A stretch of DNA of 32,000 bases. It comes from Candidatus Saccharimonadota bacterium. Lineage in GTDB: Bacteria; Patescibacteriota; Patescibacteriia; 2-12-FULL-60-25. Made by a program: the position numbers and the translations under genes. How positions within the stretch are numbered: position 1 is the first letter of the stretch; each line of letters begins with the position of its first letter. The stretch covers positions 480,001 to 512,000 of the forward strand of contig CP060222.1 of NCBI GenBank assembly GCA_023898425.1, in the 5' to 3' direction. The notes below the pieces were generated by a model, which did no database searches, was not told the origin of the DNA, and worked only from the letters and a program-made list of their open reading frames with translations. Shown one piece after another: positions 14,158 through 29,519 of the stretch.

Positions 14158-15435
14158 ATGAACCTCCTCACTTCTTATCGCTGGTTGCGTGAATACGTTG
14201 ACCTTGGCAAAACAACAGCTGAAGAATTCGCTGAACGCGTTTCGCTTTCTGGTCCGGGCGTAGAGCAGCTTATCCCTCAAGGCAAAGATCTTGAGAATAT
14301 TGTTATTGGTAAAATTCTTCGCATCGAAGAGCATCCAAAAGCACAAAAATTACGCTTGCCGATTGTTGATATTGGTGGACGCGAACTCACCATTGTTTGC
14401 GGTGGTACCAATATCGTCGAAGGTCAGCTTGTTGCGGTGGCACTGGTTGGCGCAAGTGTGCGTTGGCACGGAGAAGGGGAGCTAATCGTGCTTGAACCAA
14501 TCGAAATTCGCGGCGTAAAGAGCGAAGGGATGATTTGTGCGGCAAATGAGATTGGTTTATTTGACGCGTTTCCACACGGAGATGGAGAAATTTTAGATCT
14601 TGGTAAAAGCATCCCAGAATTATCTGTTGGACTTGGCACACCACTTGCTGATGCGCTTGGATTATCTGATGACACCGTCATGGACATCGAAGTTACGACC
14701 AATCGTCCTGATGCGATGGGAATGGTCGGTATGGCGCGTGAAGCATCTGCCATTTTAGACGCAGACTTCACCTGGAAAGCCCCAAAACTCCCATCAAAAA
14801 TCAAAGTTTGCGAAAAGCTCGAAGTAAACGTCGAAGAAAAAGAGCTCGCACCTCGCTATATGGCGGTGCGTATGGATGGCGTAAAGGTCACCGACTCTCC
14901 ATGGTGGATTAAACGTCTCCTGCTTGGTGCTGGAGTACGTCCACATAATAACGTCGTAGATATCACAAATTTGATTCGTCTTGAGCTTGGCCAACCGATG
15001 CATGCTTTTGATGCGGGCAAACTCGTTGGTGATACGCTTCACATTCGCAAAGCCAAAGCAGGAGAGAAGATCGCTGCACTTGATGGCATTACATACGAAC
15101 TAAGCGAAACAAATCTTGTTATTGCTGATGATGAGCAACCTCAATGCATTGCAGGCATTATGGGTGGCGAACACTCTGCTATCACGACTGATACCGTGAG
15201 CGTTATTTTTGAAGCGGCAACATTTGATCCTGTCTTTACTCGTCGAAGTGCGCGTAAACTCAATGTCTACAGCGACTCGCAAAAACTTTTCGAAAAAGGC
15301 CTCTCAACACAAGCGCCAGAATTTGCGCGCTCGCTCGTGCCATTGAGATGTGTAAGGAGCTTTGTGGAGGAGATGTTTCAAGCGAAATCGTCGACAAGAT
15401 GGCTCACGTCTATAAACCTCAAGAATTCTCCGTAA
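14158..15435 (+). CDS. pheT: Phenylalanine--tRNA ligase beta subunit, fragment 1 of 3 (frame lost near 15325)
   Basis: It contains the tRNA-binding domain (ILRIEEHPKAQKLRL...VCGGTNI) and the B3_4 domain (VTTNRPDAMGMVGMAREA). PheT-like sequence ends at ...GLSTQAPEFA; the remaining ~35 codons are out-of-frame tail. Confidence 0.9.
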   Translation: MNLLTSYRWLREYVDLGKTTAEEFAERVSLSGPGVEQLIPQGKDLENIVIGKILRIEEHPKAQKLRLPIVDIGGRELTIVCGGTNIVEGQLVAVALVGASVRWHGEGELIVLEPIEIRGVKSEGMICAANEIGLFDAFPHGDGEILDLGKSIPELSVGLGTPLADALGLSDDTVMDIEVTTNRPDAMGMVGMAREASAILDADFTWKAPKLPSKIKVCEKLEVNVEEKELAPRYMAVRMDGVKVTDSPWWIKRLLLGAGVRPHNNVVDITNLIRLELGQPMHAFDAGKLVGDTLHIRKAKAGEKIAALDGITYELSETNLVIADDEQPQCIAGIMGGEHSAITTDTVSVIFEAATFDPVFTRRSARKLNVYSDSQKLFEKGLSTQAPEFARSLVPLRCVRSFVEEMFQAKSSTRWLTSINLKNSP

Positions 15436-16010
15436 AAACCGAGCAGGTTACCACGCTCATTGGCTTACCTATCGAAGACAAAGAGATGTTGAGCTCCCTC
15501 AAGAAGCTTGGCTTTGATGCATCCATTAAAAAAGGTGTCTTAACAGCCGAAGTACCTTGGTGGCGTGACCACGATATCGAGTCAGGTCGTGATTTTATCG
15601 AAGAGATTGCACGTTTGCGTGGCTATGCGCATCTACCGGCGGTGTTTCCGGCGGGTATTTCGAATCGTCGTATTACCAAGCAACAAGTTATCGAGAAAAA
15701 GACACGCACGATTCTTAAAGGCGCTGGTTTAAGCGAAGCGTTTACCTATTCATTTGTGTCAGGAGACATGATGAAGAAAGCAGGTTTTGATCCAAGTCAC
15801 ATGTTGAGAATCGATAACCCTCTCACCACCGACTTTGAGTTCATGCGTGCATCGCTCTTACCATCCATGCTCGAAACGATTAGCGAAAATCATGAGCGTC
15901 GCAAAGAGCTCGCATTCTTTGAGATGGCACATATCTACCTCAATACGAGTGAAACTGGTACATGGAATGATCTCCTCAAGAAACCATGCAATTATCCCTT
16001 GGTATTTTGA
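15348..16010 (+). CDS. pheT: Phenylalanine--tRNA ligase beta subunit, fragment 2 of 3
   Basis: This frame already reads ALARAIEMCKELCGG from about 15326. It continues through the B5 region and core (EVPWWRDHDIE, FSYSFVS-like FTYSFVSGD, NPLTTDFEFMRASLLPSMLE). The frame is lost again near 15975. Confidence 0.9.
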   Translation: MCKELCGGDVSSEIVDKMAHVYKPQEFSVKTEQVTTLIGLPIEDKEMLSSLKKLGFDASIKKGVLTAEVPWWRDHDIESGRDFIEEIARLRGYAHLPAVFPAGISNRRITKQQVIEKKTRTILKGAGLSEAFTYSFVSGDMMKKAGFDPSHMLRIDNPLTTDFEFMRASLLPSMLETISENHERRKELAFFEMAHIYLNTSETGTWNDLLKKPCNYPLVF

Positions 16011-16573
16011 GCGATGATGCAGCCTGGAAAAAAGCAAAAGGCGCTACTGAACATCTTCTAAAAGAACTCGGCATTAAAAATGTGACTTGGAAGAAACATG
16101 AAAGCGATCCATTCTGGCACCCAGGACGTTCTGCTCAAGGATTTGTTGGCGAACATCTCGTCGCAACAATTGGTGAAATCCATCCAGAACTTCGTGAGCG
16201 TTATAAGTTTGAAGGTCGTGTTGCCTTAGCCGATATCTCCGTCAAAGAATTAGCTGAGCTTGCCTCCCACGCTGACTATCAACCAATGAATGCCTACCCT
16301 GAGGTTAAGCGTGATCTCGCCTTTATCTTGGATAGCTCCATCGAGGTTCAGTCGATTGTAGACTCTATCAAACAACTCAATCCACTCATCAGACAAGCAG
16401 AATGGTTTGATACCTATAAAGGCAAGGGGATTGCACCAGGCAAAAAATCTGTCGCTATCCGCGTGACGATCGGATCTACCGAGCGCACACTTGAATCAAG
16501 CGAAACCGAGAAAGTCATTGAAGACATAAAAGAACACGTTACCAAAGAGTATCGTGCAGAAAGCAGAAGTTAG
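15986..16573 (+). CDS. pheT: Phenylalanine--tRNA ligase beta subunit, fragment 3 of 3
   Basis: This frame is open from about 15967 (SPQETMQLSLGIL). It contains FWHPGRSA and the C-terminal ferredoxin-fold domain (DLAFILDSSIEV..., FDTYKGKGIAPGKKSVAIRVT). Confidence 0.9.
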   Translation: MQLSLGILSDDAAWKKAKGATEHLLKELGIKNVTWKKHESDPFWHPGRSAQGFVGEHLVATIGEIHPELRERYKFEGRVALADISVKELAELASHADYQPMNAYPEVKRDLAFILDSSIEVQSIVDSIKQLNPLIRQAEWFDTYKGKGIAPGKKSVAIRVTIGSTERTLESSETEKVIEDIKEHVTKEYRAESRS

Positions 16574-16580
16574 TTCAATT

Positions 16581-16604
16581 AAAAACGCCGATAAGGCGTT
16601 TTTG
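16581..16604 (+). terminator. Rho-independent terminator after pheT
   Basis: AAAAACGCC-gataa-GGCGTTTTT: a short GC stem flanked by an A-run and a T-run, 8 nt after the pheT stop. Confidence 0.55.
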
Positions 16605-16648
16605 CTACATAAAGCCATTTTACTATATCAATTATGTCTATTTTACTG

Positions 16649-16677
16649 TTGACAAAAGTGTCATTTTATGGTATTAT
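16649..16677 (+). promoter_or_regulatory. Strong sigma70-type promoter of the lipoprotein array
   Basis: TTGACA (16649-54), a 17-nt spacer ending in TGG, then TATTAT (16672-77). The layout is nearly identical to the promoter at 20653. Confidence 0.6.
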
Positions 16678-16753
16678 TTCGCGTTGACTACAGGAGTATT
16701 CTGCTTCTAAGTCATCACGATTTATGCCGTTTTGCGGCAGAAAGAGGGTTCGA

Positions 16754-18136
16754 ATGTCCTTTTCAAGCAAGATTCTATTGGCGTTTTGCGCCTTCGTTGC
16801 CCTCATGGGCTGCGAAAGTCGCAGAGTAGATGTCTACATCCATGAAGCAACCGGCTGTGAGTCCGACGCGGACTGCGACGCCGTCTATGGCGGTGACACG
16901 TTCACCTGGTGCGACATGGAGGCCGGCAACGGCACCTGTCACTACGAAACGTACTACGAGTACGAGATTCCGAATTGCTACAGCGATCTGGACTGCGACG
17001 ACGGTGACAGCACCTCATCCGACACGTGTAACGCTAATGGGTGTACGCACGTGATCCGTGAAGTCGAAGTCATCGAGGTTTCGGCTCCTTCCGAAGGAGC
17101 CAACATCACCGCAACATTTGCCACCGAAGGACGGCTCACGATCGTCGACGGAAACACCTGGGGTCACCTCGGCGATCTCACCATCACGGCCAATAACACC
17201 ATTGGACGACGCCAAATCCTTGGCATCGTCTTCAGTGGCGCGAACGCCGGCGCGTGGTCGGGAGTTGCTCTGGCGCAAAACGGAGCGGTCGTGAATACGG
17301 CCGTTCCGGTGTCCACCGGCTCCTTTCGAAGCAGTATCGTCTTCAACTTCGACAGCCTCTTCCTAGCGGCTGGCGAAACGATGACCTACCAAGTCTGGGG
17401 CAAGACGGACGAGACGTATTTCACCTCGACGTCGAGGTCGGATCCGACCGTCTCGCTCTCACTCGATGGCTTGCGTATGAATGGCAACGCAGAAGATATC
17501 ATCGTCTCTGAAGAGAGCGGTACCTTCTGGACCATGCTACGCAAAACCAAGCCCACGGTGACGCGCCAAGCGCTCGCAACCACGACGCTCGGCAATACGA
17601 CACAGGATCTGTACAGAATGCAGATCAGTGCCGACGCCCATGGCTCGGTCGAGGTGCATAGCCTCGCCTTCGAGCTCGACGGCAACTCGACAAATCTCGC
17701 ACTATCACACTTCGAAGTCCGCGTCGGCAGCCAACCGCTCCCTCCCAGCGACTACACCGTTCGCGGCGAGGTTGGACTCACCGACTATAGGACGAGCGGA
17801 CTAGCGTTGGGAGATGGAGCTATTCTCATCATCCACTTCATCAATCCGCAAATTGTGACGGGTTCGGGAGTGGTTCTGACGCTCAGCGCCACTATCTCTG
17901 GTACACAGAGCGGCGATCAGGTCACGATCCGCCCCTATACCAGTGCGCCTTGGGGACACGTCGCAAGCGGATGGATGAATGCCGCCGGACGTCTCGTCTT
18001 CTCGAGCGAGGAGGTCTATACCTCTTCAATCGTCTGGCGTGACGGTGCCCATAACTTCAGCGACACGCTTGGTCACTGGGCTTACGGCGACTACGATATC
18101 TTGGACCTTACTCAGGTCCAAGTACTGACCCGCTAG
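16754..18136 (+). CDS. Lipoprotein-like surface protein, paralogue 1 (two 4-Cys modules plus a large beta-rich C-terminal region)
   Basis: The ATG at 16754 is preceded by AGAGGG with a 5-nt spacer; an alternative in-frame ATG is at 16724. MSFSSKILLAFCAFVALMGC is a signal peptide with a lipobox-like LMGC. The Cys modules are C-x5-C-x11-C-x8-C and C-x5-C-x10-C-x4-C. About 360 aa rich in Thr/Ser/Gly/Val follow. I recognise no known domain. Confidence 0.75.
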   Translation: MSFSSKILLAFCAFVALMGCESRRVDVYIHEATGCESDADCDAVYGGDTFTWCDMEAGNGTCHYETYYEYEIPNCYSDLDCDDGDSTSSDTCNANGCTHVIREVEVIEVSAPSEGANITATFATEGRLTIVDGNTWGHLGDLTITANNTIGRRQILGIVFSGANAGAWSGVALAQNGAVVNTAVPVSTGSFRSSIVFNFDSLFLAAGETMTYQVWGKTDETYFTSTSRSDPTVSLSLDGLRMNGNAEDIIVSEESGTFWTMLRKTKPTVTRQALATTTLGNTTQDLYRMQISADAHGSVEVHSLAFELDGNSTNLALSHFEVRVGSQPLPPSDYTVRGEVGLTDYRTSGLALGDGAILIIHFINPQIVTGSGVVLTLSATISGTQSGDQVTIRPYTSAPWGHVASGWMNAAGRLVFSSEEVYTSSIVWRDGAHNFSDTLGHWAYGDYDILDLTQVQVLTR

Positions 18137-18155
18137 TCAGCCCGACAACTCACTA

Positions 18156-18198
18156 CCCCCACCCTCTGATTTCCGTTCTGGAATGACGAGGGTGGGGG
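18156..18198 (+). repeat. GC-rich hairpin element, copy 1 of 3
   Basis: CCCCCACCCTC (18156-66) pairs perfectly with GAGGGTGGGGG (18188-98) around a 21-nt loop (tgatttccgttctggaatgac) that contains an inner TTCC/GGAA pair. It lies 20 nt after the paralogue 1 stop. Confidence 0.8.
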
Positions 18199-18280
18199 AT
18201 CAGTAATGAAGGCTTTACAACGATGTAGAGCTTTCATCTCTGGTTTCAATGCCGTTTCACGGCAGAAAGTTAAGGTTTAT

Positions 18281-19646
18281 ATGTCCTTTTACAGGTTCGC
18301 CCTCATGTTCTGCGCCCTTACCATTGGCTGCAATAGTGCTCCTATGGAGGAATTCATCCATGAGTCGGCAGGATGTCAAACAAGTGAAGACTGCGACCTA
18401 CAGTACGGGCCCAATACCCGTATTTGGTGCACCGTTAGCACGGATGGCGGCACCTGCCACTATCAAACATCCTTTGATCGTGAAGCTCCAGGCTGTGTAA
18501 GCGACCAAGACTGCGATGACAGCGACCCGATATCTCTGGATTCATGTGAAGCAAACGGCTGTAGACATGTTTTTTCTGGGCTCGAAATTTATTTCGAGCC
18601 CATTAGTAGCGTCCTGACTAGCAATAGCGAGGTGTGGCAGAAAATCGGTACGGTCACACTCGTCAGCGCTATCACGCGTCGTATCGACTACCTGGCTCTA
18701 AATTCAGTTGTAATGGATCTTGAGACAGGTACCGGTATTGTTGACACAGCCTTTGTAGGAGATCGAATTTTTGATTCTTTTGCACTCGCGCAGGAAGGTA
18801 ACGTTCGCGTGACAGCCCCAAATACGGGCCTTAACCGAGTTGAGTTCTTCACGCCAGATTTCTTCGTGGAGCTAGCCCCTGGGCATTCCGCATCCTTAGA
18901 GCTCTGGGCTAAGGTCAACCCTTCCTACCACGCCATCTTCCCTGATGACGGTGTGGCGGCACGAGTCACCCTTGCGGCGATCAGTGATCGCAATGGCCAA
19001 ACCTTCTACGGGAATCCGTTCTCTCGTCCGTCGGTGAGTGTGATTCATCGCAGCAAGCCTAGCCTATTGAGGCAGGCCATCGCAACAACGAGGATCAGCA
19101 ATGGTCCACAGCAAGATCTCTACCGGGTGCAAATCACTGCCGATCCAAATGGACCCGTTCGTGTTTACTCACTGAACTTTATCCTCAACGGATCTACGCT
19201 CGGCGGAACGGTCGGAAACTTCTCTCTAAGGAGAGGGCGGTCCAAATTCCCAACGAGGATGCAGAGATCGTCTATTGGGCCCACGAATCCGGTGAGTGGG
19301 TAAAAACGAGCCTTGCTTCTGGAATAGAAGTGTCACCTAGTGATACGGAGTTCTGGATCAACGTGATCTTTCGGGAGCCGTTGATCATCACGAGCAGCGG
19401 CATCGTTCTAACTCTCTCGGCTTCTACATCTGGTTTTGTAGATGGAGACTCGCTGAGCACGACAATTGAGGAGTAGGGCTCGATGGTGTTTGTGGAACAG
19501 ACGGTACTATCGTCCGCGGTCCCGACACCAATCCGATCGTCTGGCGCACTTCTGCCATCGTATGGGACGATTTCGGAATGAATGGTTCCTGCTTCGGCAC
19601 AACTTCTATCGGGACCCTCACATGGGTCACAACGCTGACCCGCTAG
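18281..19646 (+). pseudogene. Lipoprotein-like surface protein, paralogue 2; frame broken twice as written
   Basis: The ATG at 18281 gives MSFYRFALMFCALTIGC, and Cys-module spacing matches paralogue 1. Track ORF 18206..19303 stops being homologous after ...VGNFSL (~19227). The next frame reads KERAVQIPNEDAEIVYWAHESGEW...LTLSASTSGFVDGDSLSTTIEE up to 19476. A third frame reads GVGLDGVCGTDGTIVRGPDTNPIVWRTSAIVWDDFG...TWVTTLTR with its stop at 19644-46. All three pieces align with paralogue 1, including the shared terminal LTR. Confidence 0.7.
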
Positions 19647-19667
19647 TCAGCCCAACAACTCTGAAGA

Positions 19668-19710
19668 CCCCCACCCTCCGATTTCTGTTCTGGAATGACG
19701 AGGGTGGGGG
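19668..19710 (+). repeat. GC-rich hairpin element, copy 2 of 3
   Basis: The same 11-bp stem: CCCCCACCCTC at 19668-78 and GAGGGTGGGGG at 19700-10. The loop differs from copy 1 at two positions. Confidence 0.8.
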
Positions 19711-19789
19711 ATCAGCAATGAAGGCTTTACATGGTAGTAGAGCTTTCATCTCTGGTTTAACGCCGTTTCACGGCAGAAAGAGGGTTCGA

Positions 19790-20560
19790 ATGTCCTTTTC
19801 CAGCAAGCTTTTCCTGGCGCTTTGCGCCGCGTTCGCCCTCATGGGCTGCCAGGACCACCGGGTGGATGTCTACATCCACGAGGATACGGGCTGTCAGTCC
19901 GACGCGGACTGCGACGAGGCGTATGGCGATGACACGATCGCCTCGTGCATCCAAGAGACGGGCGCTTGTCGCTACGTCACGACAAACGTGACGGAGGTCG
20001 AAGCACCTCCTTGCTTCACCGATGCAGAGTATGCTGACGACAACGCGTCGTCGGCAGACACCTGCGACGAAGGCACTTGTATTCATACCGTCCGTCTGGG
20101 CGGTGTGAGCACAATCGTGTTCGGCACGCAAAGGATGTACGGGGAGTATGCCGCTCCCTATGTTTCGTCGACAACAATCTCGACGGAGATCGAGTCCCCG
20201 CAGCTATTGGGGACGTTCCAGATCATCAATGATTCTGGAAGCGAGTTCGTCATCGACGAACTCGACTTCGGCGCAACGACCGCCCTCGGCCACTGTGCCG
20301 AGGTAACAGCCGACTATCGGTACTACACAGAATTTGTGTACGAACCGATAGAGGGACTGGAGCTTAGCGAGGAAGGCCTCATCCTGAACTTCGACGCCGT
20401 GTCAATCCCGGCATCCGAGATGGTCTGGATTGGCCTTTACTGCCGCGTGAACGCGGCAACAGAGGCCGCTGAGGCGGTACTTTTCACTCCGCGCTGGGAG
20501 TGGAACCCTGACATCCCCGTGTACACGGACAGCGCGCCTGTCATCGTGTACTTCAACTAA
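19790..20560 (+). CDS. Lipoprotein-like surface protein, paralogue 3 (short form with an unrelated C-terminal half)
   Basis: The ATG at 19790 follows AGAGGGTTCGA, as for paralogue 1. MSFSSKLFLALCAAFALMGC is the signal/lipobox-like sequence. The first Cys module is conserved; the second has Tyr in place of its second Cys (PCFTDAEYADD). The C-terminal ~150 aa do not resemble paralogues 1 or 2. Track ORF 19466..20560 carries a spurious 5' extension. Confidence 0.75.
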   Translation: MSFSSKLFLALCAAFALMGCQDHRVDVYIHEDTGCQSDADCDEAYGDDTIASCIQETGACRYVTTNVTEVEAPPCFTDAEYADDNASSADTCDEGTCIHTVRLGGVSTIVFGTQRMYGEYAAPYVSSTTISTEIESPQLLGTFQIINDSGSEFVIDELDFGATTALGHCAEVTADYRYYTEFVYEPIEGLELSEEGLILNFDAVSIPASEMVWIGLYCRVNAATEAAEAVLFTPRWEWNPDIPVYTDSAPVIVYFN

Positions 20561-20567
20561 CTTCGAG

Positions 20568-20610
20568 CCCCCACCCTCCGATTTCCGTTCTGGAATGACG
20601 AGGGTGGGGG
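20568..20610 (+). repeat. GC-rich hairpin element, copy 3 of 3; probably also the array terminator
   Basis: The same stem (20568-78 / 20600-10), 8 nt after the paralogue 3 stop. Only this copy is followed by a T-rich tail (atttctattattt). Confidence 0.8.
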
Positions 20611-20652
20611 ATTTCTATTATTTAAATATATGTATTAACGTCAACAACTTAC

Positions 20653-20681
20653 TTGACAAAATGACTATTCTATGGTATTAT
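20653..20681 (+). promoter_or_regulatory. Strong promoter giving an apparently leaderless mRNA
   Basis: TTGACA (20653-58), a 17-nt spacer ending in TGG, then TATTAT (20676-81). The ATG at 20688 lies only 6 nt after the -10 box. Confidence 0.6.
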
Positions 20682-20687
20682 ATTGCC

Positions 20688-21251
20688 ATGAATAAATACT
20701 TGTCATCCCTATCTTTGGCTATTATCGGTACATTAACGATTAGCTCACAAGCGCTTGCAGCGCCAGGTGTTGTGTATAAAAAACGTTTGTCATTACCAAC
20801 TGTTCCAACATCTATTATCTCACAAGCGGAGAAGTCCTTGTGGCGTCTCCCGACAGAAAAAAGCACAAAACTTGGTCAGCCAGTATTTGAAAACTTTACG
20901 AATCTAAAAACAAATCCTCCTGTTTTTATAGGTGAAAAAGACTGTTCGGGCGTCACGTATCGCGCATGGTCTGTAACCGTTGATTTAGAGACGGAAAGAA
21001 AAAATCATCCGACGTTACTTCCTTATTCTCGTTATTATAAAGATGCAGACGGTATTTACGAGCAACAGAAATATCTTTTTGAAGCAAGAACACCCGAGGA
21101 GGTGAAATGGCATATTGATACAACGAAAAATGTTCGCTACTCAACGGAGCCATTCTTTTCTTGTAGAAACAAAGACGTTGTCTTGGAGTACTCTGTAAGA
21201 GATTTAGAGAGTGAGCGTCCATACTACGCACCAAGATTTTTAAAACCGTAA
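20688..21251 (+). CDS. Secreted Tyr-rich hypothetical protein, N-terminal fragment (frame lost at 21237-21245)
   Basis: The ATG at 20688 inside track ORF 20595..21251 gives MNKYLSSLSLAIIGTLTISSQALAAP, a signal peptide with an A-x-A cleavage site. No known domain. Confidence 0.65.
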   Translation: MNKYLSSLSLAIIGTLTISSQALAAPGVVYKKRLSLPTVPTSIISQAEKSLWRLPTEKSTKLGQPVFENFTNLKTNPPVFIGEKDCSGVTYRAWSVTVDLETERKNHPTLLPYSRYYKDADGIYEQQKYLFEARTPEEVKWHIDTTKNVRYSTEPFFSCRNKDVVLEYSVRDLESERPYYAPRFLKP

Positions 21252-21931: not shown

Positions 21932-21956
21932 AAAAAATTAATTTGTGAAAACAAAA

Positions 21957-21988
21957 ACTCCTCCGATATTTTTCGGAGGAGTTTTTTG
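21957..21988 (+). terminator. Rho-independent terminator
   Basis: ACTCCTCCGA-tatttt-TCGGAGGAGT: a perfect 10-bp stem flanked by an A-run upstream and TTTTTT downstream. Confidence 0.8.
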
Positions 21989-22553: not shown

Positions 22554-22940
22554 ATGGGCCAACGAGGCAGTAAATATGAGTTTTACTTTAACTTGCTCGA
22601 CCAAGGAGTTCCTGCCTGGAATACCTGGCGCAAAGATCATCCAGACAAGATTATTGATCTATCTGGGGCAAATCTTAACTACCTAGATCTAAGCAAGGTA
22701 AACTTCTCAAAAGTGAACCTCGACAATGCACGTTTTCAAGGTACAAACTTTAGAGATGCTGACTTTCAGCTATCATCGTTACGTTTCGTCAATATCTATC
22801 GCTGTACGCTTGATGGTGCAAATTTTTATGGCGTTAAGTCGTCTTTTGTCACTATTGTTGATACTTCACTTGCTACTGTTCAAGGCAAAGAATTTCTCAA
22901 TGGTGCACTTTGTCGAACGTCACGTTCTTCTATGCTTTAA
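22554..22940 (+). CDS. Pentapeptide repeat protein
   Basis: 128 aa. The N-terminal GVPAWNTWRKDHPDKIIDLSGANL is typical of this family. Tandem A(D/N)LxX-type pentads follow: ANLNYLDLSKVNFSKVNLDNARFQGTNFRDADFQLSSLRFVNIYRCTLDGANFYG. Confidence 0.75.
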   Translation: MGQRGSKYEFYFNLLDQGVPAWNTWRKDHPDKIIDLSGANLNYLDLSKVNFSKVNLDNARFQGTNFRDADFQLSSLRFVNIYRCTLDGANFYGVKSSFVTIVDTSLATVQGKEFLNGALCRTSRSSML

Positions 22941-23456: not shown

Positions 23457-23484
23457 CTAGATTCTTTTTCTTTCTCTGCAATGT

Positions 23485-23493
23485 TGCTATACT
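23485..23493 (+). promoter_or_regulatory. Extended -10 box TGCTATACT, 8 nt before an ATG (leaderless layout)
   Basis: TGCTATACT lies at 23485-93 and the ATG at 23502. Confidence 0.45.
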
Positions 23494-23501
23494 CTTTTCA
23501 T

Positions 23502-23840
23502 ATGTACATTTCTCTTCAAGATCTTTTACTTATTGCTGGCATCGTCTCTTTGTTGTTTGTTGCTGGTTTTTTAAGCTGGACACTCTATGAAGCAGCGCGT
23601 CTACTTCGTAACGTAAACTATATTGCAAATATTATCCGCCGAGGCACAGAAAAAGCAGAAGACCTTGTAAATCTCGTTGGCGATAAGCTTACTGGTCTTG
23701 CTGGATACTCAGGTATGGCAGCAAAAGCAGGGGAGAAGGTGCTTGGATATATCATGGACCATATGGAGACAGACTCCGCGCCAACAAAAAAAAGAGCCAA
23801 AAGAAAGATGCCAAGTCTAACGGATTTAGATGAGGAGTAA
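23502..23840 (+). CDS. Small membrane-anchored protein with a helical C-terminal part (YtxH/DUF948-like by appearance only)
   Basis: The ATG at 23502 inside track ORF 23481..23840 gives MYISLQDLLLIAGIVSLLFVAGFLSW, an N-terminal TM helix. An Ala/Lys/Glu-rich segment follows, then the basic tail KKRAKRKMPSLTDLDEE. Confidence 0.55.
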   Translation: MYISLQDLLLIAGIVSLLFVAGFLSWTLYEAARLLRNVNYIANIIRRGTEKAEDLVNLVGDKLTGLAGYSGMAAKAGEKVLGYIMDHMETDSAPTKKRAKRKMPSLTDLDEE

Positions 23841-23930
23841 TCATCTCCCTCATTCCCTCTTCTTTAAATAAAGAAGAGGGAGGCCAGAATCAGTCGCCCT
23901 TCTTTAACAAAGAAGGGGCAGGGGATGATT
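23839..23930 (+). other. Nested multi-hairpin structure (outer stem enclosing two similar hairpins)
   Basis: The outer stem pairs AATCATC(t)CCC (23839-49) with GGGGATGATT (23921-30). Inner hairpin a is CCCTCTTCTTTA/TAAAGAAGAGGG (23855-80). Inner hairpin b is CCCTTCTTT-aac-AAAGAAGGG (23897-917). Confidence 0.5.
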
Positions 23931-23961: not shown

Positions 23962-23984
23962 GGTACCCAACGGGTACCTTTTTG
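23962..23984 (+). terminator. Rho-independent terminator
   Basis: GGTACCC-aac-GGGTACC followed by TTTTT, with an A-run upstream. Confidence 0.6.
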
Positions 23985-24036: not shown

Positions 24037-26676
24037 ATGGCTGACCAAATCCCTCAAGAGGCTGAAATAAAGCCTCGTTCTCCATTTGTGCAGCTTCATG
24101 CGCATTCGATGTATTCATTATCTGATGCTATGGGGAGTCCTGATGACATCGTAAAGCATGCCCTAAGCCTTGGATACGATGCACTAGCTCTTACCGATCA
24201 CAATGGACTTTATTCTGCGATCGAATTTTACGAGTCAGGCAAAAAGCACGGTCTCAAAACCATTGTTGGCGTAGAGGTTAATGTCGCACCAAATAAACAT
24301 ACGGATAAACGCGCTGGTATTGATCAACATACCACGCATCTCACTTTACTCGCAGAAACCAATGAGGGGTATCACAATCTTTTGCGTTTAGTTTCTATTT
24401 CAAATATCGATGGTTTTTACTATCGTCCACGTGTTGATAAAGAGCTTTTAAAAAAACACAACGAAGGCATCATTGCATTGTCGGGTTGTCTCAAGGGCGA
24501 AATCCCAAAAGCAATCCACATGCATGACGAAGAAAAAGCGCTTAAGTCTGTTGAGGAGTTTAAAGAGATCTTTCGTCCAGATTGTTTTTTTATCGAACTC
24601 ATTCATCATCCAGAGTCTCCAACACAAAATGAAGTCAATGAAGGACTTATTGCTTTAGCCAAAAAAACCGATCTCCCCGTTGTTGCAACGCGTAATGTTC
24701 ATTATCTGGTAGAAGAAGACCGCGAAGCACAAGATGTTTTATGCTGTATTCACGATGGTAAAATCTTGGATGATCCACGTCGTTCTACCATGTCGAGCCT
24801 TGATCTCTCGATGTGTCCACCCGAATACATGGTGGAGGCATTTGTAGATTTACCAGAGGCCATCGAAAATACACGAAAGATTGCTGATCGTTGCAATGTC
24901 GAAATTGAACTTGGGGTAAACCACTTGCCTAAGTTTGATGTTCCAGAAGGGGAGACGGAGTTTACTCAATTAAAAAAACTTTGTGAGATTGGCCTTCTTG
25001 AACGTTATCCGGATCCTGAGCAACTCGTAAAAGCAAAAGAACGTCTTACCTTTGAGCTTGAGACGATTGAGCGCATGGGTTTTGCTGCCTACTTTTTGAT
25101 TGTAGCGGACTATATTAACTGGGCAAAAGACCACGATGTGATTGTAGGGCCCGGCCGTGGATCAGCCGCAGGCTCCATTGTTGCCTATGCGCTAAAAATC
25201 ACAAACCTAGATCCGCTCTATTACGGATTACTCTTTGAGCGTTTTTTAAATCCGGATCGTATCTCAATGCCTGATATTGATACCGATTTTGATGATGTAA
25301 AACGTAAAGATGTTATTGAGTATGTGACACAAAAATACGGAGCTGACCGTGTAGCGGGTATTATTACTTTTGGTACTATGGCGGCTCGTGCTGCTGTGCG
25401 TGATGTGGGTCGTGTATTAGACATGCCTTATGCTGATGTCGATAAAGTAGCTAAAGCGATTCCGCCACCTCAACAAGGTAGACATATCCCATTAAAAGTC
25501 TCTAAAGAAGAAGCGCCGGAGTTGCGTGACATGTACCAAAACGATCCACGTATTAAGCGTTTGATCGATTTAGCGATTCGTCTCGAAGGTACAACACGCC
25601 ATGCCTCACAGCATGCCTGTGGCATTGTGATTGCTCCTGAGGCGCTCTCTGAACTCTCCCCACTCCAAAAGGCACAGGGTGGTGATGTTGATCAGGTTGT
25701 GCAATATGCCAACCATTCCGCCGAAGTGACAGGATTATTAAAGATGGATTTTTTGGGTCTCTCTAACTTATCAGTCATCCGTGATTGTCTTGAGATTACA
25801 GAGGCGGTTTATGGTGACGTGATTGATATTAACGAGATACCACTTGATGATCCAAAAACGTACGAGCTATTAGGAAAAGGGGAGACGACTGGTGTTTTTC
25901 AACTCGAGTCAGATGGCATGAAAAAGTATATCCGTGAATTACGTCCATCTGTCATCGAAGATATTATCGCTATGGTGGCGCTGTATCGTCCTGGTCCGAT
26001 GCAATTTATCGAATCCTTTATTAATCGTAAGCATGGACGCGAAAAGGTGACCTTCATGCATGAGCTCACCAAAAGCGCCCTTCAAAACACCTATGGTATT
26101 CCGGTGTATCAAGAGCAAGTGATGCAAGTGGCCAAAGACATGGCCGGTTTTACTCCTGGAGAAGCTGACACCCTCCGTAAAGCGATGGGTAAGAAGATCG
26201 CAAAACTCATGGCCGAGCTACGCGTAAAGTTTATCGAAGGCTCCATCAAAAAAGGCGTGGAGGCAAAAACAGCTGAGGCGATTTTTACCCAGTTTGAAGA
26301 GTTTGCTGCCTATGGCTTTAATAAGTCACATGCGGCTTGTTATGCATTGATTGCTTATCAAACAGCCTATTTAAAAGCGCATTATCCAGATGCATTTATG
26401 GCGGCGCTCTTAAATAGCGACATTAACAATATTGATCGTATTACGATCGAGGTCGAGGAGTGTAAGCGCATGAATATGCCGGTATTACCACCGGATGTAA
26501 ATGAATCATTCGCGCGCTTTGCCGTTGTTAAGGGCAAAAACTCGCTTCGCTTTGGTCTTGCTGCGGTAAAAGGGCTCGGTGAAGATATTTCTGAAGCAAT
26601 CATCAAGAAGAAAAAACCAATGGATCATTTAAAGATCTCGAGGACTTTGTTACGCGCATGGATCCATTTGGTTTAA
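24037..26676 (+). CDS. dnaE: DNA polymerase III alpha subunit, fragment 1 of 2 (frame lost at A6, 26611-26616)
   Basis: It has a PHP domain (FVQLHAHSMYSLSDAMGSP, ALTDHNGLY) and a polymerase core (GPGRGSAAGSIVAYALKIT, MPDIDTDF, YRPGPM, FNKSHAACYA). DnaE-like sequence ends at ...GEDISEAIIKKKK; the last ~20 codons are out of frame. Confidence 0.92.
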   Translation: MADQIPQEAEIKPRSPFVQLHAHSMYSLSDAMGSPDDIVKHALSLGYDALALTDHNGLYSAIEFYESGKKHGLKTIVGVEVNVAPNKHTDKRAGIDQHTTHLTLLAETNEGYHNLLRLVSISNIDGFYYRPRVDKELLKKHNEGIIALSGCLKGEIPKAIHMHDEEKALKSVEEFKEIFRPDCFFIELIHHPESPTQNEVNEGLIALAKKTDLPVVATRNVHYLVEEDREAQDVLCCIHDGKILDDPRRSTMSSLDLSMCPPEYMVEAFVDLPEAIENTRKIADRCNVEIELGVNHLPKFDVPEGETEFTQLKKLCEIGLLERYPDPEQLVKAKERLTFELETIERMGFAAYFLIVADYINWAKDHDVIVGPGRGSAAGSIVAYALKITNLDPLYYGLLFERFLNPDRISMPDIDTDFDDVKRKDVIEYVTQKYGADRVAGIITFGTMAARAAVRDVGRVLDMPYADVDKVAKAIPPPQQGRHIPLKVSKEEAPELRDMYQNDPRIKRLIDLAIRLEGTTRHASQHACGIVIAPEALSELSPLQKAQGGDVDQVVQYANHSAEVTGLLKMDFLGLSNLSVIRDCLEITEAVYGDVIDINEIPLDDPKTYELLGKGETTGVFQLESDGMKKYIRELRPSVIEDIIAMVALYRPGPMQFIESFINRKHGREKVTFMHELTKSALQNTYGIPVYQEQVMQVAKDMAGFTPGEADTLRKAMGKKIAKLMAELRVKFIEGSIKKGVEAKTAEAIFTQFEEFAAYGFNKSHAACYALIAYQTAYLKAHYPDAFMAALLNSDINNIDRITIEVEECKRMNMPVLPPDVNESFARFAVVKGKNSLRFGLAAVKGLGEDISEAIIKKKKPMDHLKISRTLLRAWIHLV

Positions 26677-27596
26677 ATCGTAGGTCACTAGAAGCCCTTA
26701 TTAAATCTGGTGCGCTTGATCGTTTTGAGGATCGCAATCAACTTTATTTTAACATTGAGATTATCTTGCAATATCAAAAACGCATGACGCAAGAAACAAA
26801 TTCGGGGCAATTTAATCTCTTTGCGCTCTCAAGCGAAACAGCGGCACGCGATAGACTCACTTTAAAACCTGCGCCTCCAGCCATCACACGAGACATTCTT
26901 ACATGGGAAAAGGAGCTATTAGGCCTCTACCTTTCTTCTCATCCGTTTAAAGAATACGCCGATAGACTTGGCGATCTTGTCCATCCAATCTCCAACTTAC
27001 CAAAATTTGTTGCCGAAAAGTCCGTACGCACCGCAGGAACCTTTACCATCGCAAAAAAGATCCTGACAAAAGCAGGAGAGCCGATGGTCTTTGCCAAGCT
27101 CGAAGATATGACGGGGGATATCGAAGCCGTGATCTTTCCACGAACCTATAAAGAAAAGCCCGAGCTATGGAATACCGATAATTCCGTTGTGCTCCATGGG
27201 CGCGTTCAAGATAAAGACGGCGAATGGAAGTTTCTTGTTGAATCCGGTTATCCACTTACACCTGATAATATAGATACTGTCATTGATCACTTACAAACAC
27301 AGAGTGGTAAGCGCATTGATCCACGATTAGAACCAGACGCACCGCTCCCCAAAAAGCGTGCTGAGCAAGCCATCTCGATCTATTTACGAGCGCATTTACC
27401 ACCAAGCATTCTCCATCGTATTCGTGAGCTTTTTGATCAGAATCCGGGCCGTTACCGCGTTTACTTTGTCGTTGATAATGCTGGAGGCAAGCAAAAGGTC
27501 TTATCAAGTTATCGTATTCGTTTTGATGATGCGATCTCTAAAGAGTTAGAGCAGACACTTGGCCCTGACACCGTAAAGGTAGAAACAGGGGAGTGA
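26658..27596 (+). CDS. dnaE: DNA polymerase III alpha subunit, fragment 2 of 2 (C-terminal OB-fold region)
   Basis: This frame reads TNGSFKDLEDFVTRMDPFGLNRRSLEALIKSGALD from 26616 onward. It continues through EKELLGLYLSSHPF and the OB-fold segment (MVFAKLEDMTGDIEAVIFP). Confidence 0.92.
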   Translation: MDPFGLNRRSLEALIKSGALDRFEDRNQLYFNIEIILQYQKRMTQETNSGQFNLFALSSETAARDRLTLKPAPPAITRDILTWEKELLGLYLSSHPFKEYADRLGDLVHPISNLPKFVAEKSVRTAGTFTIAKKILTKAGEPMVFAKLEDMTGDIEAVIFPRTYKEKPELWNTDNSVVLHGRVQDKDGEWKFLVESGYPLTPDNIDTVIDHLQTQSGKRIDPRLEPDAPLPKKRAEQAISIYLRAHLPPSILHRIRELFDQNPGRYRVYFVVDNAGGKQKVLSSYRIRFDDAISKELEQTLGPDTVKVETGE

Positions 27597-28097: not shown

Positions 28098-28111
28098 TGT
28101 GTTCTGTTTTT
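28081..28111 (+). terminator. Rho-independent terminator
   Basis: ACACACTAC-ctcg-GTAGTGTGT followed by TCTGTTTTT. It overlaps the stop codon. Confidence 0.55.
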
Positions 28112-28153
28112 GAGTCATAAAAATGTGCTAGGGGTGATTCTGTCTGCACGGCA

Positions 28154-28162
28154 TGCTATTAT
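28154..28162 (+). promoter_or_regulatory. Extended -10 box TGCTATTAT, 7 nt before an ATG (leaderless layout)
   Basis: TGCTATTAT lies at 28154-62 and the ATG at 28170. Confidence 0.5.
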
Positions 28163-28169
28163 GCAATGT

Positions 28170-29519
28170 ATGCGGATAACTTTTTTTGGCGCCTCACGTG
28201 AAGTCACTGGCTCTTGTTACCTTGTAGAAAGCGCAAAAGGCAAAATCCTTATTGATTGCGGGATGTTTCAAGGCTGTAAACTCTGCGGAGCGCAAAACTT
28301 TGCTGACTTTCCTTTTAATGCCTCAGAAATCGATGCGGTTTGCATCACTCATGCGCATTTAGATCATACTGGCCGTATCCCAAAGCTTATGAAGGCCGGT
28401 TTTCGCGGTAAAGTATATGCGACACCTCCATCAGTAAAACTAGCCTCTCTTGTATTAGAAGACGCCTACAAAATCATGGATTCGGATTATCGACGCGAAT
28501 ATCGACCAAAGCTCTACGAAGAAGAGGATATTGCGAGAGCTCTCAAAAGCTTCGTTGGCGTTGAGTATTTAAAACCTATTACCATCAAAGACCTCACTAT
28601 TACCTTTAAAGACGCGGGTCATATTTTTGGTAGTTCATTTATCGAAGTACGCGAGAAAAATGGAGGGTCAGCTGCTTTTTCGGGCGACCTAGGCAATGAC
28701 GGTGCACAGATTTTAAAAGAAACAAATGCCCTAGGCGCTGTAGATGCACTTATCATTGAATCCACCTATGGCAATCGTATCCATGAAGACGAGAAGACAA
28801 GGGAGTCTAAATTAAGAACGGTCATTGAAAGAACAATAAAACAAAAAGGCGTTCTTATTATCCCAGCATTTGCGATCGAACGCACCCAGCAATTACTCTA
28901 TGAGATGAATCATCTTGTCGAAAATCGCATTATCCCACGCGTGGATACCTATTTAGATAGCCCAATGGCCATTAAAGCGACCGACATCGTAAAAGAGTAC
29001 CCACAATATTACGATCAAGAAGCATTTAAACTTGTCGCAAGTGGTGACGATATGTTTGATTTTCCGGGCTTAACACTCGCACTAACAAAAGACGAATCCA
29101 AGCTTATTAACTCTGCACCAAAACCAAAGATTATCATCTCTGGCTCTGGCATGATGAATGGCGGCCGAGTATTACATCACTTGATTCGTTATTTGAGCAG
29201 TCCATCAACGACGGTATTAATTATTGGCTATCAAGCCGAAGGTACGCTAGGCAGACAACTCTATCACGGAGACAAGTCAGTAGAGATTTATGGGGAGCGG
29301 GTAAGTGTAAAAGCAAAGATCGAAAGTATTGGGGCGTATAGTGCTCACGCCGATCAAAATAAACTTGTGAGCTGGGTAGCAAATGCTGAGGCAAAACCTA
29401 AGCGTATTTTCTGCACCCATGGAGAAGAGGGCGCGGCAATAGCCCTCGCGACGCGTTTACAAAAAGAACTTGGTATTATTAGTGACGCGCCACGTTATGG
29501 TGATAGCTTTACCGTATGA
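28170..29519 (+). CDS. Metallo-beta-lactamase / beta-CASP family RNA-processing nuclease
   Basis: The ATG at 28170 inside track ORF 28110..29519 gives MRITFFGASREVTGSCYLVES. The HxHxDH motif is ITHAHLDHTGRIP. FKDAGHIFGS, IIESTYG and the C-terminal GAYSAHADQNKL and CTHGE motifs are also present. Confidence 0.85.
   Translation: MRITFFGASREVTGSCYLVESAKGKILIDCGMFQGCKLCGAQNFADFPFNASEIDAVCITHAHLDHTGRIPKLMKAGFRGKVYATPPSVKLASLVLEDAYKIMDSDYRREYRPKLYEEEDIARALKSFVGVEYLKPITIKDLTITFKDAGHIFGSSFIEVREKNGGSAAFSGDLGNDGAQILKETNALGAVDALIIESTYGNRIHEDEKTRESKLRTVIERTIKQKGVLIIPAFAIERTQQLLYEMNHLVENRIIPRVDTYLDSPMAIKATDIVKEYPQYYDQEAFKLVASGDDMFDFPGLTLALTKDESKLINSAPKPKIIISGSGMMNGGRVLHHLIRYLSSPSTTVLIIGYQAEGTLGRQLYHGDKSVEIYGERVSVKAKIESIGAYSAHADQNKLVSWVANAEAKPKRIFCTHGEEGAAIALATRLQKELGIISDAPRYGDSFTV

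Follow-up and report, generated by a model that had tools for sequence, protein, structure and literature searches.

A conserved three-hairpin RNA element in the spacers of a surface-lipoprotein operon from a small group of Patescibacteria

Three lipoprotein paralogues lie head to tail in a 32,000-nucleotide stretch from a Candidatus Saccharimonadota bacterium (contig CP060222.1, positions 480,001 to 512,000; from this point on, the window), and the spacer that separates them is a three-hairpin RNA element. The spacer divides fast-evolving surface-lipoprotein genes of one operon in a small group of Patescibacteria, and it is a conserved structure under constraint at the RNA level. As for its function, we see about an even chance that it acts in cis, as a structure of the sense-strand RNA, to punctuate a polycistronic operon of surface-lipoprotein genes within a small clade of these bacteria. 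Patescibacteria, or candidate phyla radiation (CPR) bacteria, are uncultured, episymbiotic and DNA-scavenging, living as epibionts with reduced genomes. To our knowledge, almost nothing is known of post-transcriptional control or surface variation in the CPR. The locus described here offers a compact RNA motif with covariation support that is tied to a strain-variable array of surface-lipoprotein genes.

Anatomy and conservation of the spacer element

The two spacer modules occupy 18137-18280 and 19647-19789 (about 150 nt each), between the TAG stops at 18134-18136 and 19644-19646 and the ATG starts at 18281 and 19790. All spacer, promoter and paralogue coordinates in the window refer to the + strand. 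From stop to start the spacers are 86-89% identical to each other, against 38-43% amino-acid identity and 41-53% nucleotide identity for the flanking coding sequences over the full alignment. The original prediction, made from the letters of the window, had judged 18125-18280 and 19635-19789 to agree at nearly nine positions in ten, and 138 of the 158 alignment columns (87%) do agree.

Each module consists of the same parts in the same order. The first hairpin (hp1), at 18156-18198 in module 1 and 19668-19710 in module 2, has an 11-bp GC stem, a 4x4 internal loop and a 4-bp distal stem, with folding energies of -28.6 and -27.5 kcal/mol, respectively. Its 11-nt arms are 100% complementary with 21 nt between them, just as had been described. 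It directly abuts the second hairpin (hp2; 18199-18244, -22.8 kcal/mol, z = -7.4; and 19711-19756, -21.3 kcal/mol, z = -6.1), which proves longer than first claimed, with a 13-bp inner stem containing an invariant U·G and a 5-bp outer stem, AUCAG/CUGGU. After hp2 comes an AU-rich linker, 5-6 nt long in the window. In module 1 this is UUCAAU at 18245-18250, which is unpaired in both the minimum-free-energy (MFE) and centroid folds and which we propose as a putative endonuclease entry site. The third hairpin (hp3), a small GCCG-loop-CGGC structure that was likewise foreseen, is followed by AGAAAG, a purine-rich ribosome-binding site (RBS) and the ATG. In module 1 this last unit spans 18251-18283 (-7.8 kcal/mol), with hp3 as GCCG-UUUCA-CGGC at 18251-18263, the AGAAAG/Shine-Dalgarno (SD) region and ATG 18281. 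In module 2 it spans 19762-19792, with hp3 at 19762-19774, AGAAAGAGGG as the SD region and ATG 19790.

Fold prediction, which had been suggested as a check, gives -64.6 kcal/mol for the whole module (z = -6.2 against dinucleotide shuffles), and z-scores for the stable folds range from -4.6 to -7.4. The 43-nt hairpin occurs three times in the window, starting at 18156, 19668 and 20568, where 0 are expected in 100 shuffles. The third occurrence, at 20568-20610 after paralogue 3, was correctly noted from the start, as was the sharing of roughly the last 35 nt of the module with the 5' side of paralogue 1, where 16720-16744 is 80% identical. Within that shared portion, 16726-16744 holds a folded copy of hp3, GCCG-TTTTG-CGGC (16726-16738), plus AGAAAG in the 5' untranslated region (UTR) of paralogue 1; this copy belongs to repeat family D5 and is 80% identical to the module copies.

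Relatives were collected with a protein search using paralogue 1, which returned six proteins, one of them from a Patescibacteria metagenome-assembled genome (MAG). The contigs of these six proteins, together with one scan of a genome collection and one scan of metagenomes with the hp2 pattern, supplied 15 loci. These hold 18 distinct module copies from about nine related metagenomic or MAG loci, drawn from few related lineages, so that the copies are not independent. Across all copies, the hp2-hp3 linker is 3-8 nt long, poor in G and for the most part rich in A/U.

In a plain MAFFT alignment of the 18 copies, 95.9% of the pair cells are paired and 7 pairs carry double changes, whereas controls in which the pairing partners were slid give 41-49% paired cells and 1-3 double-change pairs. 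The observed covariation score was reached in 0 of 500 shuffles. When the copies were re-aligned with a covariance model built from the MAFFT alignment, the figures became 98.2% and 11 (slid controls, 43-50% and 0-2), although an alignment fitted to the structure leans in the structure's favor. The structure-preserving covariation in homologues that the original prediction had proposed to look for is thus present, with 7-11 double-change pairs against 0-3 in the controls. By hairpin, hp1 is 100% paired in the 18 copies and hp2 98% paired, each with 3 double-change pairs. Individual copies illustrate how the stems are kept. The hp1 of L005 (GCCUCUCCCCC / GGGGGAGAGGC) retains all 11 pairs through four double changes (C-G to G-C, C-G to U-A, A-U to U-A, and U-A to C-G), and in the second, diverged copy of L005, where hp2 has undergone three double changes, 12 of 13 hp2 pairs still form. 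In L012 copy 3 and L015 copy 1, a U·G is completed to U-A, while the hp2 variant found 5' of MNK-family genes shows G-C to A-U and C-G to U-A. The loop of hp3 is free to vary, with its stem either kept or covarying, as in L005, where it reads CCGC/GCGG.

The direction of the tolerated changes identifies the strand. Among the aligned copies, 56 G·U cells are spread over 13 pair positions, compared with 2 A·C cells at one position, and each of the three transitions found in the 5' arm of L004 yields G·U, so that pairing is kept only in the sense-strand RNA. Read on the opposite strand, the same changes would be C·A mismatches. This implies selection on the sense-strand RNA rather than on a DNA cruciform or an antisense transcript. 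It also explains why the G-rich 3' arm of hp1 is conserved at 97% and the C-rich 5' arm at 93%, since C-to-U is tolerated as G·U and G-to-A is not. The module therefore shows the general properties of a conserved, structured cis-acting RNA, namely folds more stable than shuffles, compensatory changes and selection on the transcribed strand. A search of the whole window against Rfam 15 returned 0 matches at gathering thresholds, and a permissive scan of 16600-20700 gave only noise at E = 2-7.

The same 18 copies bear on whether the module is translated. The ATGs within hp2, at 18206 and 19718, are indeed in frame and open to the downstream start in the window, each with GGGGGA before it at good SD spacing, and AAUGA is invariant in the 18 copies; on the first of these grounds an N-terminally extended protein had been entertained. 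That extension does not hold up among the relatives. In 14 of the 18 distinct copies the frame meets a stop after 5-75 codons (five of them after 5-6), the L010 copy is out of frame, and only 3 of 18 are both open and in phase. In the diverged L005 copy the ATG has become ATA (AUA in the RNA). Viewed as a stem, the substitutions compensate one another; viewed as codons, they are non-synonymous. Helices bury both the AUG of hp2 and the SD-like run, and with an extension the signal peptide of the lipoprotein would no longer be N-terminal. A coding role, whether as an extension of the downstream lipoprotein or as an upstream open reading frame (ORF) starting at the hp2 ATG, is in our judgment very improbable.

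Confinement to one variable locus

All of the loci represent one chromosomal place, in which pheS-pheT is followed by the variable array, one to three MNK-family genes, and dnaE. Nearly every array junction in these loci carries the module. The array of L004 contains one paralogue only, while L001 and L002, which are about 99% identical to the window across the array, have in addition a 256-aa paralogue and a 124-aa lipoprotein gene. In L002 the 124-aa gene is followed by an hp1 variant, in which a C-G pair has become U-A by compensatory change, and then by ATTCTGTTTTAT. Cassettes unrelated to the paralogues also stand at module junctions, such as an SLT-domain lipoprotein in L005 and a 133-aa membrane protein in L006 and L007. 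Further cassettes in L010, L012 and L014 encode proteins of 107, 120, 358 and 220+ aa with signal-peptide-like N termini, most of them with a lipobox Cys. The same module is thus found before or after unrelated cassettes, and we count this context independence in favor of punctuation.

The single-paralogue array of L004 also reveals how the module is put together. There, hp1 and hp2 lie 3' of the paralogue, and the hp3-SD unit is found only in its 5' UTR. Since the pieces stand apart in L004, the module of the window is a composite of a 3'-UTR piece (hp1-hp2) and the last ~35 nt of a 5' UTR (hp3-SD).

Beyond this locus the element is essentially absent from what was searched. Covariance-model matches in the window and 12 related loci are all at this locus and in one orientation, with one hit at E = 0.17 elsewhere. 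The genome collection contains a single genome of the clade, which gave one pattern match; the metagenomes gave matches on six contigs, each of them of this locus type. Viral contigs gave 0 matches to the hp2 pattern; two matches to a 20-nt pattern from the hp1 3' arm were both due to chance, with neither a hairpin nor a 5' arm. The original prediction had named a generic dispersed repeat as the outcome that would undo locus specificity, and the pattern and covariance-model searches, which match this locus only, argue against one.

A palindrome that recurs at the ends of small, partly unrelated genes in a cassette-like array nevertheless invites the proposal that the hairpins are a dispersed repeat of the repetitive extragenic palindrome (REP) or miniature inverted-repeat transposable element (MITE) kind, a derivative of an insertion sequence (IS), or integron attC sites. 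Integron attC sites, or Vibrio cholerae repeats in sedentary chromosomal integrons, resemble the module in being near-identical structured repeats of ~120 nt, each placed after one of several small genes that are co-oriented and partly unrelated, in arrays that vary between strains. The module differs in having no integrase, attI or R/L core boxes, in comprising three hairpins rather than a bulged palindrome, and in being selected as sense-strand RNA. On reading of the 18 copies, no R''/R' cores (RYYYAAC/GTTRRRY) are seen, and the fold consists of three hairpins standing apart instead of a single long, imperfect palindrome. In every locus the array is bounded by pheST and by MNK-family genes/dnaE; intI integrase and attI were sought there, and no integrase domains were found. 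A mobile or dispersed repeat likewise fits poorly with only three copies in 32 kb, all at this locus and in the same orientation as every other copy, with one site in the clade's only searchable genome, with six metagenome contigs all of this locus, with viral contigs that hold no genuine match, and with the lack of any transposase, REP-associated tyrosine transposase (RAYT) or integrase nearby. We consider such an origin highly unlikely. Two further mobile systems were examined and set aside. IS200/IS605-like ends (TTAC/TCAA cleavage motifs), assessed by reading, were rejected because TCAA follows hp2 in some copies only and no transposase is nearby, and a diversity-generating retroelement was rejected because the 32 kb contain no repeat of the template/variable (TR/VR) type and the window proteins scanned include no reverse transcriptase (RT) domain.

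The nearest described phenomenon is that of Borrelia plasmids, where conserved stem-loop motifs lie beside highly variable lipoprotein genes (Delihas 2009, PMC2674063), some of these motifs being IS605-related (PMC2775950). Both cases feature repeated intergenic stem-loops with compensatory changes next to variable lipoprotein families, and in Borrelia, too, function has been inferred in silico. The Borrelia motifs belong to another phylum, bear no sequence relation to the module and are scattered on plasmids, whereas the module is chromosomal, confined to one operon and strictly co-oriented.

A separate motif, UCGCACCUUC, occurs about 10 nt after paralogue stops (TAG, TAA or TGA) in L004, L006, L007, L010, L012, L014 and L015, and is anti-SD-like. 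It is present in most relatives and missing from the lineage of the window, and its pairing with the downstream RBS is not supported. Translational coupling through a long-range closing helix between an anti-SD and SD, formed by post-stop CGCACCUUC with the GAAGGUG-type RBS, was considered and rejected: such a closing helix does appear in some MFE folds, and the duplex energies are no better than those of shuffles, with 0.11-0.88 of the shuffles at least as good in tests of 12 copies.

Operon organization and the proposed punctuation

Upstream of the array lies a promoter, TTGACA-17 nt-TGGTATTAT (with a TG-extended TATTAT), at 16649-16677, which matches 11 of 12 consensus positions and has counterparts 5' of the arrays in L002, L004, L005, L007 and L008. 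A second copy (repeat D8) at 20653-20681 marks the end of the operon and stops 7 nt 5' of ATG 20688, the start of the next, unrelated gene. According to a consensus scan, these two are the only promoter-like sites on the + strand of the region, and the three paralogues accordingly look like one operon. Taken over 42 nt (16649-16690 versus 20653-20694), the promoter duplicated just 3' of the array is 74% identical to the first. The position of the second copy implies a leaderless mRNA for the MNK-family gene it precedes. In L004, L006, L014 and L015, the MNK-family gene is without a promoter and instead has hp1 and a variant hp2 directly 5' of it.

RNA-level constraint, locus specificity and a single-promoter operon together favor cis-acting roles in the mRNA. 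Among known systems, intercistronic stem-loops that protect or process transcripts, a mechanism termed SRPS, for selective processing and stabilization of RNA, have been documented in several operons (PMC5927463, PMC4423207, PMC10311766). Examples include the 3' protective structure of malE-malF and the 5' hairpin of papBA, which lies 3' of a cleavage in unstructured RNA (PMC5927463), as well as the cip-cel operon of Ruminiclostridium cellulolyticum, in which processing sites flanked by stem-loops set stoichiometry (PMC4423207). As in the module, these cases place stable hairpins 3' of one cistron, then an unstructured stretch, then a hairpin 5' of the next cistron, within a single-promoter operon; as in the array, they encode secreted or surface proteins, and their hairpins are conserved among relatives. 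The window modules, too, lie between co-transcribed cistrons, with no internal promoter in the consensus scan. The SRPS cases come with mapped cleavage sites and measured half-lives, whereas the module is known here from sequence alone, and none of them has what the module has, one near-identical ~110-nt three-hairpin unit at every junction, conserved in both sequence and shape. The anatomy of the module matches that of the experimentally studied SRPS cases and follows the textbook layout for this mechanism, and SRPS is the mechanistically nearest class. We also count in favor of punctuation that a beta-CASP/RMMBL RNase is encoded in the window (28110-29519).

A punctuation mechanism might work as follows. 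Tandem duplication of a gene unit would have joined the 3'-UTR hairpins (hp1 and hp2) to the last ~35 nt of the 5' UTR (hp3, SD and ATG). The single strong promoter at 16649 would drive the entire array, with RNA polymerase mostly reading through the internal hp1 copies because they lack a U tract. The primary transcript would then be cleaved within the short, AU-rich stretch that links hp2 to hp3. On the upstream cistron, hp1 and hp2, two adjacent and very stable helices, would block 3'-to-5' exonucleases; on the downstream cistron, hp3 would sit at the new 5' end directly before the SD, offering protection while keeping the RBS exposed. Each cassette would thereby become its own stable mRNA, regardless of the coding sequence it carries, and hp1 with a T-rich tail would act as the terminator at the end of the array. 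Purifying selection at the RNA level, plus occasional gene conversion, would hold the module at ~90% identity while the surface-exposed bodies of the lipoproteins diverge rapidly.

The final copy of hp1 differs from the internal ones in what comes after it. At 20568-20625 (-29.7 kcal/mol), the hairpin (20568-20610) is followed by ATTTCTATTATTT, with no hp2 after it, and the T-rich tail AUUUCUAUUAUUU (20611-20625) makes it the probable terminator of the array. T-rich tails after hp1 are confined to this terminal copy and the copy behind the 124-aa gene of L002. The original prediction was right that copies 1 and 2 lack a U-tail; it had overlooked the tail of copy 3.

These observations are also the basis for an alternative in which hp1 is a partial terminator without a U-tail, an attenuator that lowers transcription progressively along the array, with hp2 and hp3 modulating it or being merely leader structure. 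In its support, hp1 is GC-rich, folds at about -28 kcal/mol and lies 5-25 nt past stop codons, much as the hairpin of an intrinsic terminator does, and, given a T-rich tail, this hairpin closes the array and follows the L002 124-aa gene. The internal copies, however, continue into AUCAGYAAUGA rather than U residues, AUCAG being paired into hp2, and hp1 was not among the calls of a terminator scan. Conservation of T content is also lacking 3' of hp2, where L005 has CCCUGACCAG. Elsewhere in the host, terminators are canonical, with short stems, loops of 4-6 nt and clear T tracts (16581-16603 and 21953-21986), as opposed to the 21-nt loop with inner stem of hp1, which argues that tail-less hp1 is not the normal form of terminator in this host. 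Downstream paralogues are intact in independent assemblies and must therefore be expressed without promoters of their own. We regard attenuation as improbable.

Exchange between copies, and the case weighed

The module matches or surpasses essential genes in conservation and far surpasses the genes on either side of it, with an excess that is uneven. Between the window and L015, for instance, pheS and pheT are 77% identical and hp1-hp2 91%, while alignment of the paralogues is limited to their first ~430 nt, at ~70%. A tree of the copies shows partial clustering by array position across genomes and partial clustering by genome. Clustering by array position implies that orthology has been retained and that homogenization is incomplete.

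Recombination has also left traces. Copies 2 and 3 of L006 (2950-2991 and 3477-3518) have in common a private hp1 loop, CUGAAAAGAAUGAA, and differ in hp2 type, which from their sequences reads as a clear, short gene-conversion tract between module copies. Between the window and L002, identity jumps from ~75% to 100% at ~16865-16870, in the conserved Cys-rich N-terminal coding block of paralogue 1, and pheT is only 86-92% identical. This switch is a recombination mosaic between strains. Its breakpoint lies not at hp3 but in coding sequence, a sliding comparison putting it at ~16870. The cassettes have a third-position GC content (GC3) of ~0.72 in hosts whose housekeeping genes are at 0.40 or 0.53. 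By region, lipoprotein cassettes are at ~0.7 in the window (16754-20560), in L004 (8027-9316) and in the reverse-strand paralogues of L015, with hosts at 0.35-0.43 (window) and ~0.53 (L004 and L015). A GC3 independent of the host suggests either a common pool of exchanged cassettes or GC-biased conversion. The conversion tract, the mosaic and GC3 indicate that recombination and exchange add to the constraint at the RNA level, and the suggestion in the original prediction that the spacers recombine is thus borne out as a secondary process by the L006 loop and by cassette content that differs between strains.

If recombination were primary, the modules and the conserved signal-peptide/Cys-rich 5' coding block would act at the DNA level as portable homology for the gain, loss, swapping and homogenization of cassettes, with conservation a by-product of concerted evolution and exchange between lineages. 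Every trace just listed can be cited for this proposal: the identity switch within the 5' coding block, the private loop across different hp2 types, and the cassette GC3. So can the extra 256-aa paralogue and 124-aa gene by which strains 99% identical across the array differ (L001 and L002), the grouping of window-lineage copies in the copy tree, and the unrelated cassettes flanked by the module. Homogenization alone, however, yields neither compensatory double changes nor a 56:2 excess of G·U over A·C on the transcribed strand. Same-position copies cluster across genomes, the one mapped strain breakpoint lies in coding sequence and not in a module, and a recombinase gene is linked to the array in no locus. 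On balance we hold this explanation to be unlikely, if the least so of the alternatives.

The two ideas might also be combined. The spacer could be the junction of an integrase-free cassette system, being at once an RNA expression adaptor (3' protector, cleavage site, 5' protector and RBS) and a homology arm for exchange between strains or lineages. If true, this would account for unrelated genes with the same spacer, the host-independent GC3 of cassettes, array content that differs between 99%-identical strains, and a spacer better conserved than housekeeping genes. We offer it as a speculative proposal of low probability.

Several points tell against punctuation itself. The copies on which the covariation rests come from few lineages, and the best pair counts come from the alignment fitted to the structure. 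In L004, L006, L014 and L015, hp2 stands without hp3 directly 5' of an unrelated MNK-family gene, so the three hairpins are not an obligate unit. The identity of hp1-hp2 falls to 76% in L004 and 69% in L005, at the same housekeeping distance as L015, and this unevenness, together with the host-independent GC3, means that some of the conservation may be owed to horizontal exchange and not to constraint. Finally, there is invariance beyond pairing, in the hp1 3' arm, in CAGYAAUGA, and in UAGAG and the invariant U·G of hp2. This is more than a block to exonucleases needs, and it hints at a specific binding partner; CAGYAAUGA, UAGAG and the U·G leave room for a specific recognition site of a protein or RNase.

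Such invariance (including the 97%-conserved hp1 3' arm) is also an argument for supposing that hp1-hp2 coordinates the array in trans, either freed as a stable small RNA or bound by an RNA-binding protein dedicated to it. In most copies hp1 has an internal loop that is symmetric and contains tandem G·A/A·G; this loop could be read the same way, and was considered as a K-turn-like element. It was rejected as a conserved feature of hp1 because Watson-Crick pairs replace it in L004 and other arrangements do so in L002, L010 and L014. Moreover, hp1-hp2 has neither a promoter nor a terminator of its own and no Rfam relative, and tolerance of G·U is a simple explanation for why the G-rich arm is the better conserved one. 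A role in trans thus seems quite improbable, more so than attenuation.

Punctuation, as set out above, would extend a known principle, the reshaping of operons by protective hairpins, and is not a new one; the element is lineage-restricted, with about nine closely related loci so far. The unusual aspect is reuse: in this strain-variable array of surface-protein cassettes in CPR bacteria, every junction has the same three-hairpin unit, nearly identical from one to the next. The ~110-nt element is well defined and, with its expected processing site, lends itself to tests in metatranscriptomes or heterologous reporters. With the motif as a sequence tag, variable arrays of surface-protein genes can also be located in related genomes.

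Lipoprotein genes and neighboring features

The lipoboxes of the three paralogues read LMGC, TIGC and LMGC in order, each protein having a Cys-rich N-terminal domain. Paralogue 1 (16754-18136), identified as an ORF, has a beta-rich body after this domain. Paralogue 2 occupies 18281-19646, and paralogue 3 (19790-20560), identified as an ORF and by alignment to the other paralogues, is a short lipoprotein of 256 aa. Paralogue 1 has no match in Pfam or NCBIfam, and the lipoprotein family as a whole has no sequence match in Pfam, NCBIfam or the Protein Data Bank (PDB). An AlphaFold model of paralogue 1 is all-beta at low confidence (pLDDT 60.7), with weak fold matches (TM ~0.2) to generic tandem beta-sandwich proteins. 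A sensitive search returned 132 remote relatives of the lipoprotein C-terminal domain, none of them annotated. The array block has a GC content of 51-59%, compared with ~44% in its surroundings, an excess that results from the third codon position (GC3 of 0.69-0.74 in paralogues 1 and 3, against 0.35-0.43 in housekeeping genes).

In the window, paralogue 2 is broken by 1-nt deletions at 19234 and 19467 relative to L013, an independent assembly that is 99.9% identical to the window over 7 kb; the gene is intact at 455 aa in both L013 and L002. Altogether, the window shows 1-nt deletions at 16617, 19234, 19467 and 21241 against these independent assemblies, and the MNK-family gene is broken as well. 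Similarly, pheT (14158-16573) is split into three ORFs and dnaE (24037-27596) into two. Because paralogue 2 is intact elsewhere and housekeeping genes are split, the frameshifts of the window were treated as assembly indels. The assembly probably carries indel errors, and apparent pseudogenes in the window are probably not to be trusted.

On the 3' side of the array, a pentapeptide-repeat protein gene (22554-22940) is found among small ORFs without a family match. Two related tandem hairpins without T tails (23854-23881 and 23894-23920; UCCCUCUUCUUUA.. / GCCCUUCUUUA..) lie just 3' of the ORF at 23481-23840 and before a canonical terminator at 23962. Farther on, 28110-29519 encodes a 469-aa ribonuclease of the beta-CASP/RMMBL metallo-beta-lactamase fold, RNase J-like, which is a candidate processor of structured operon transcripts.

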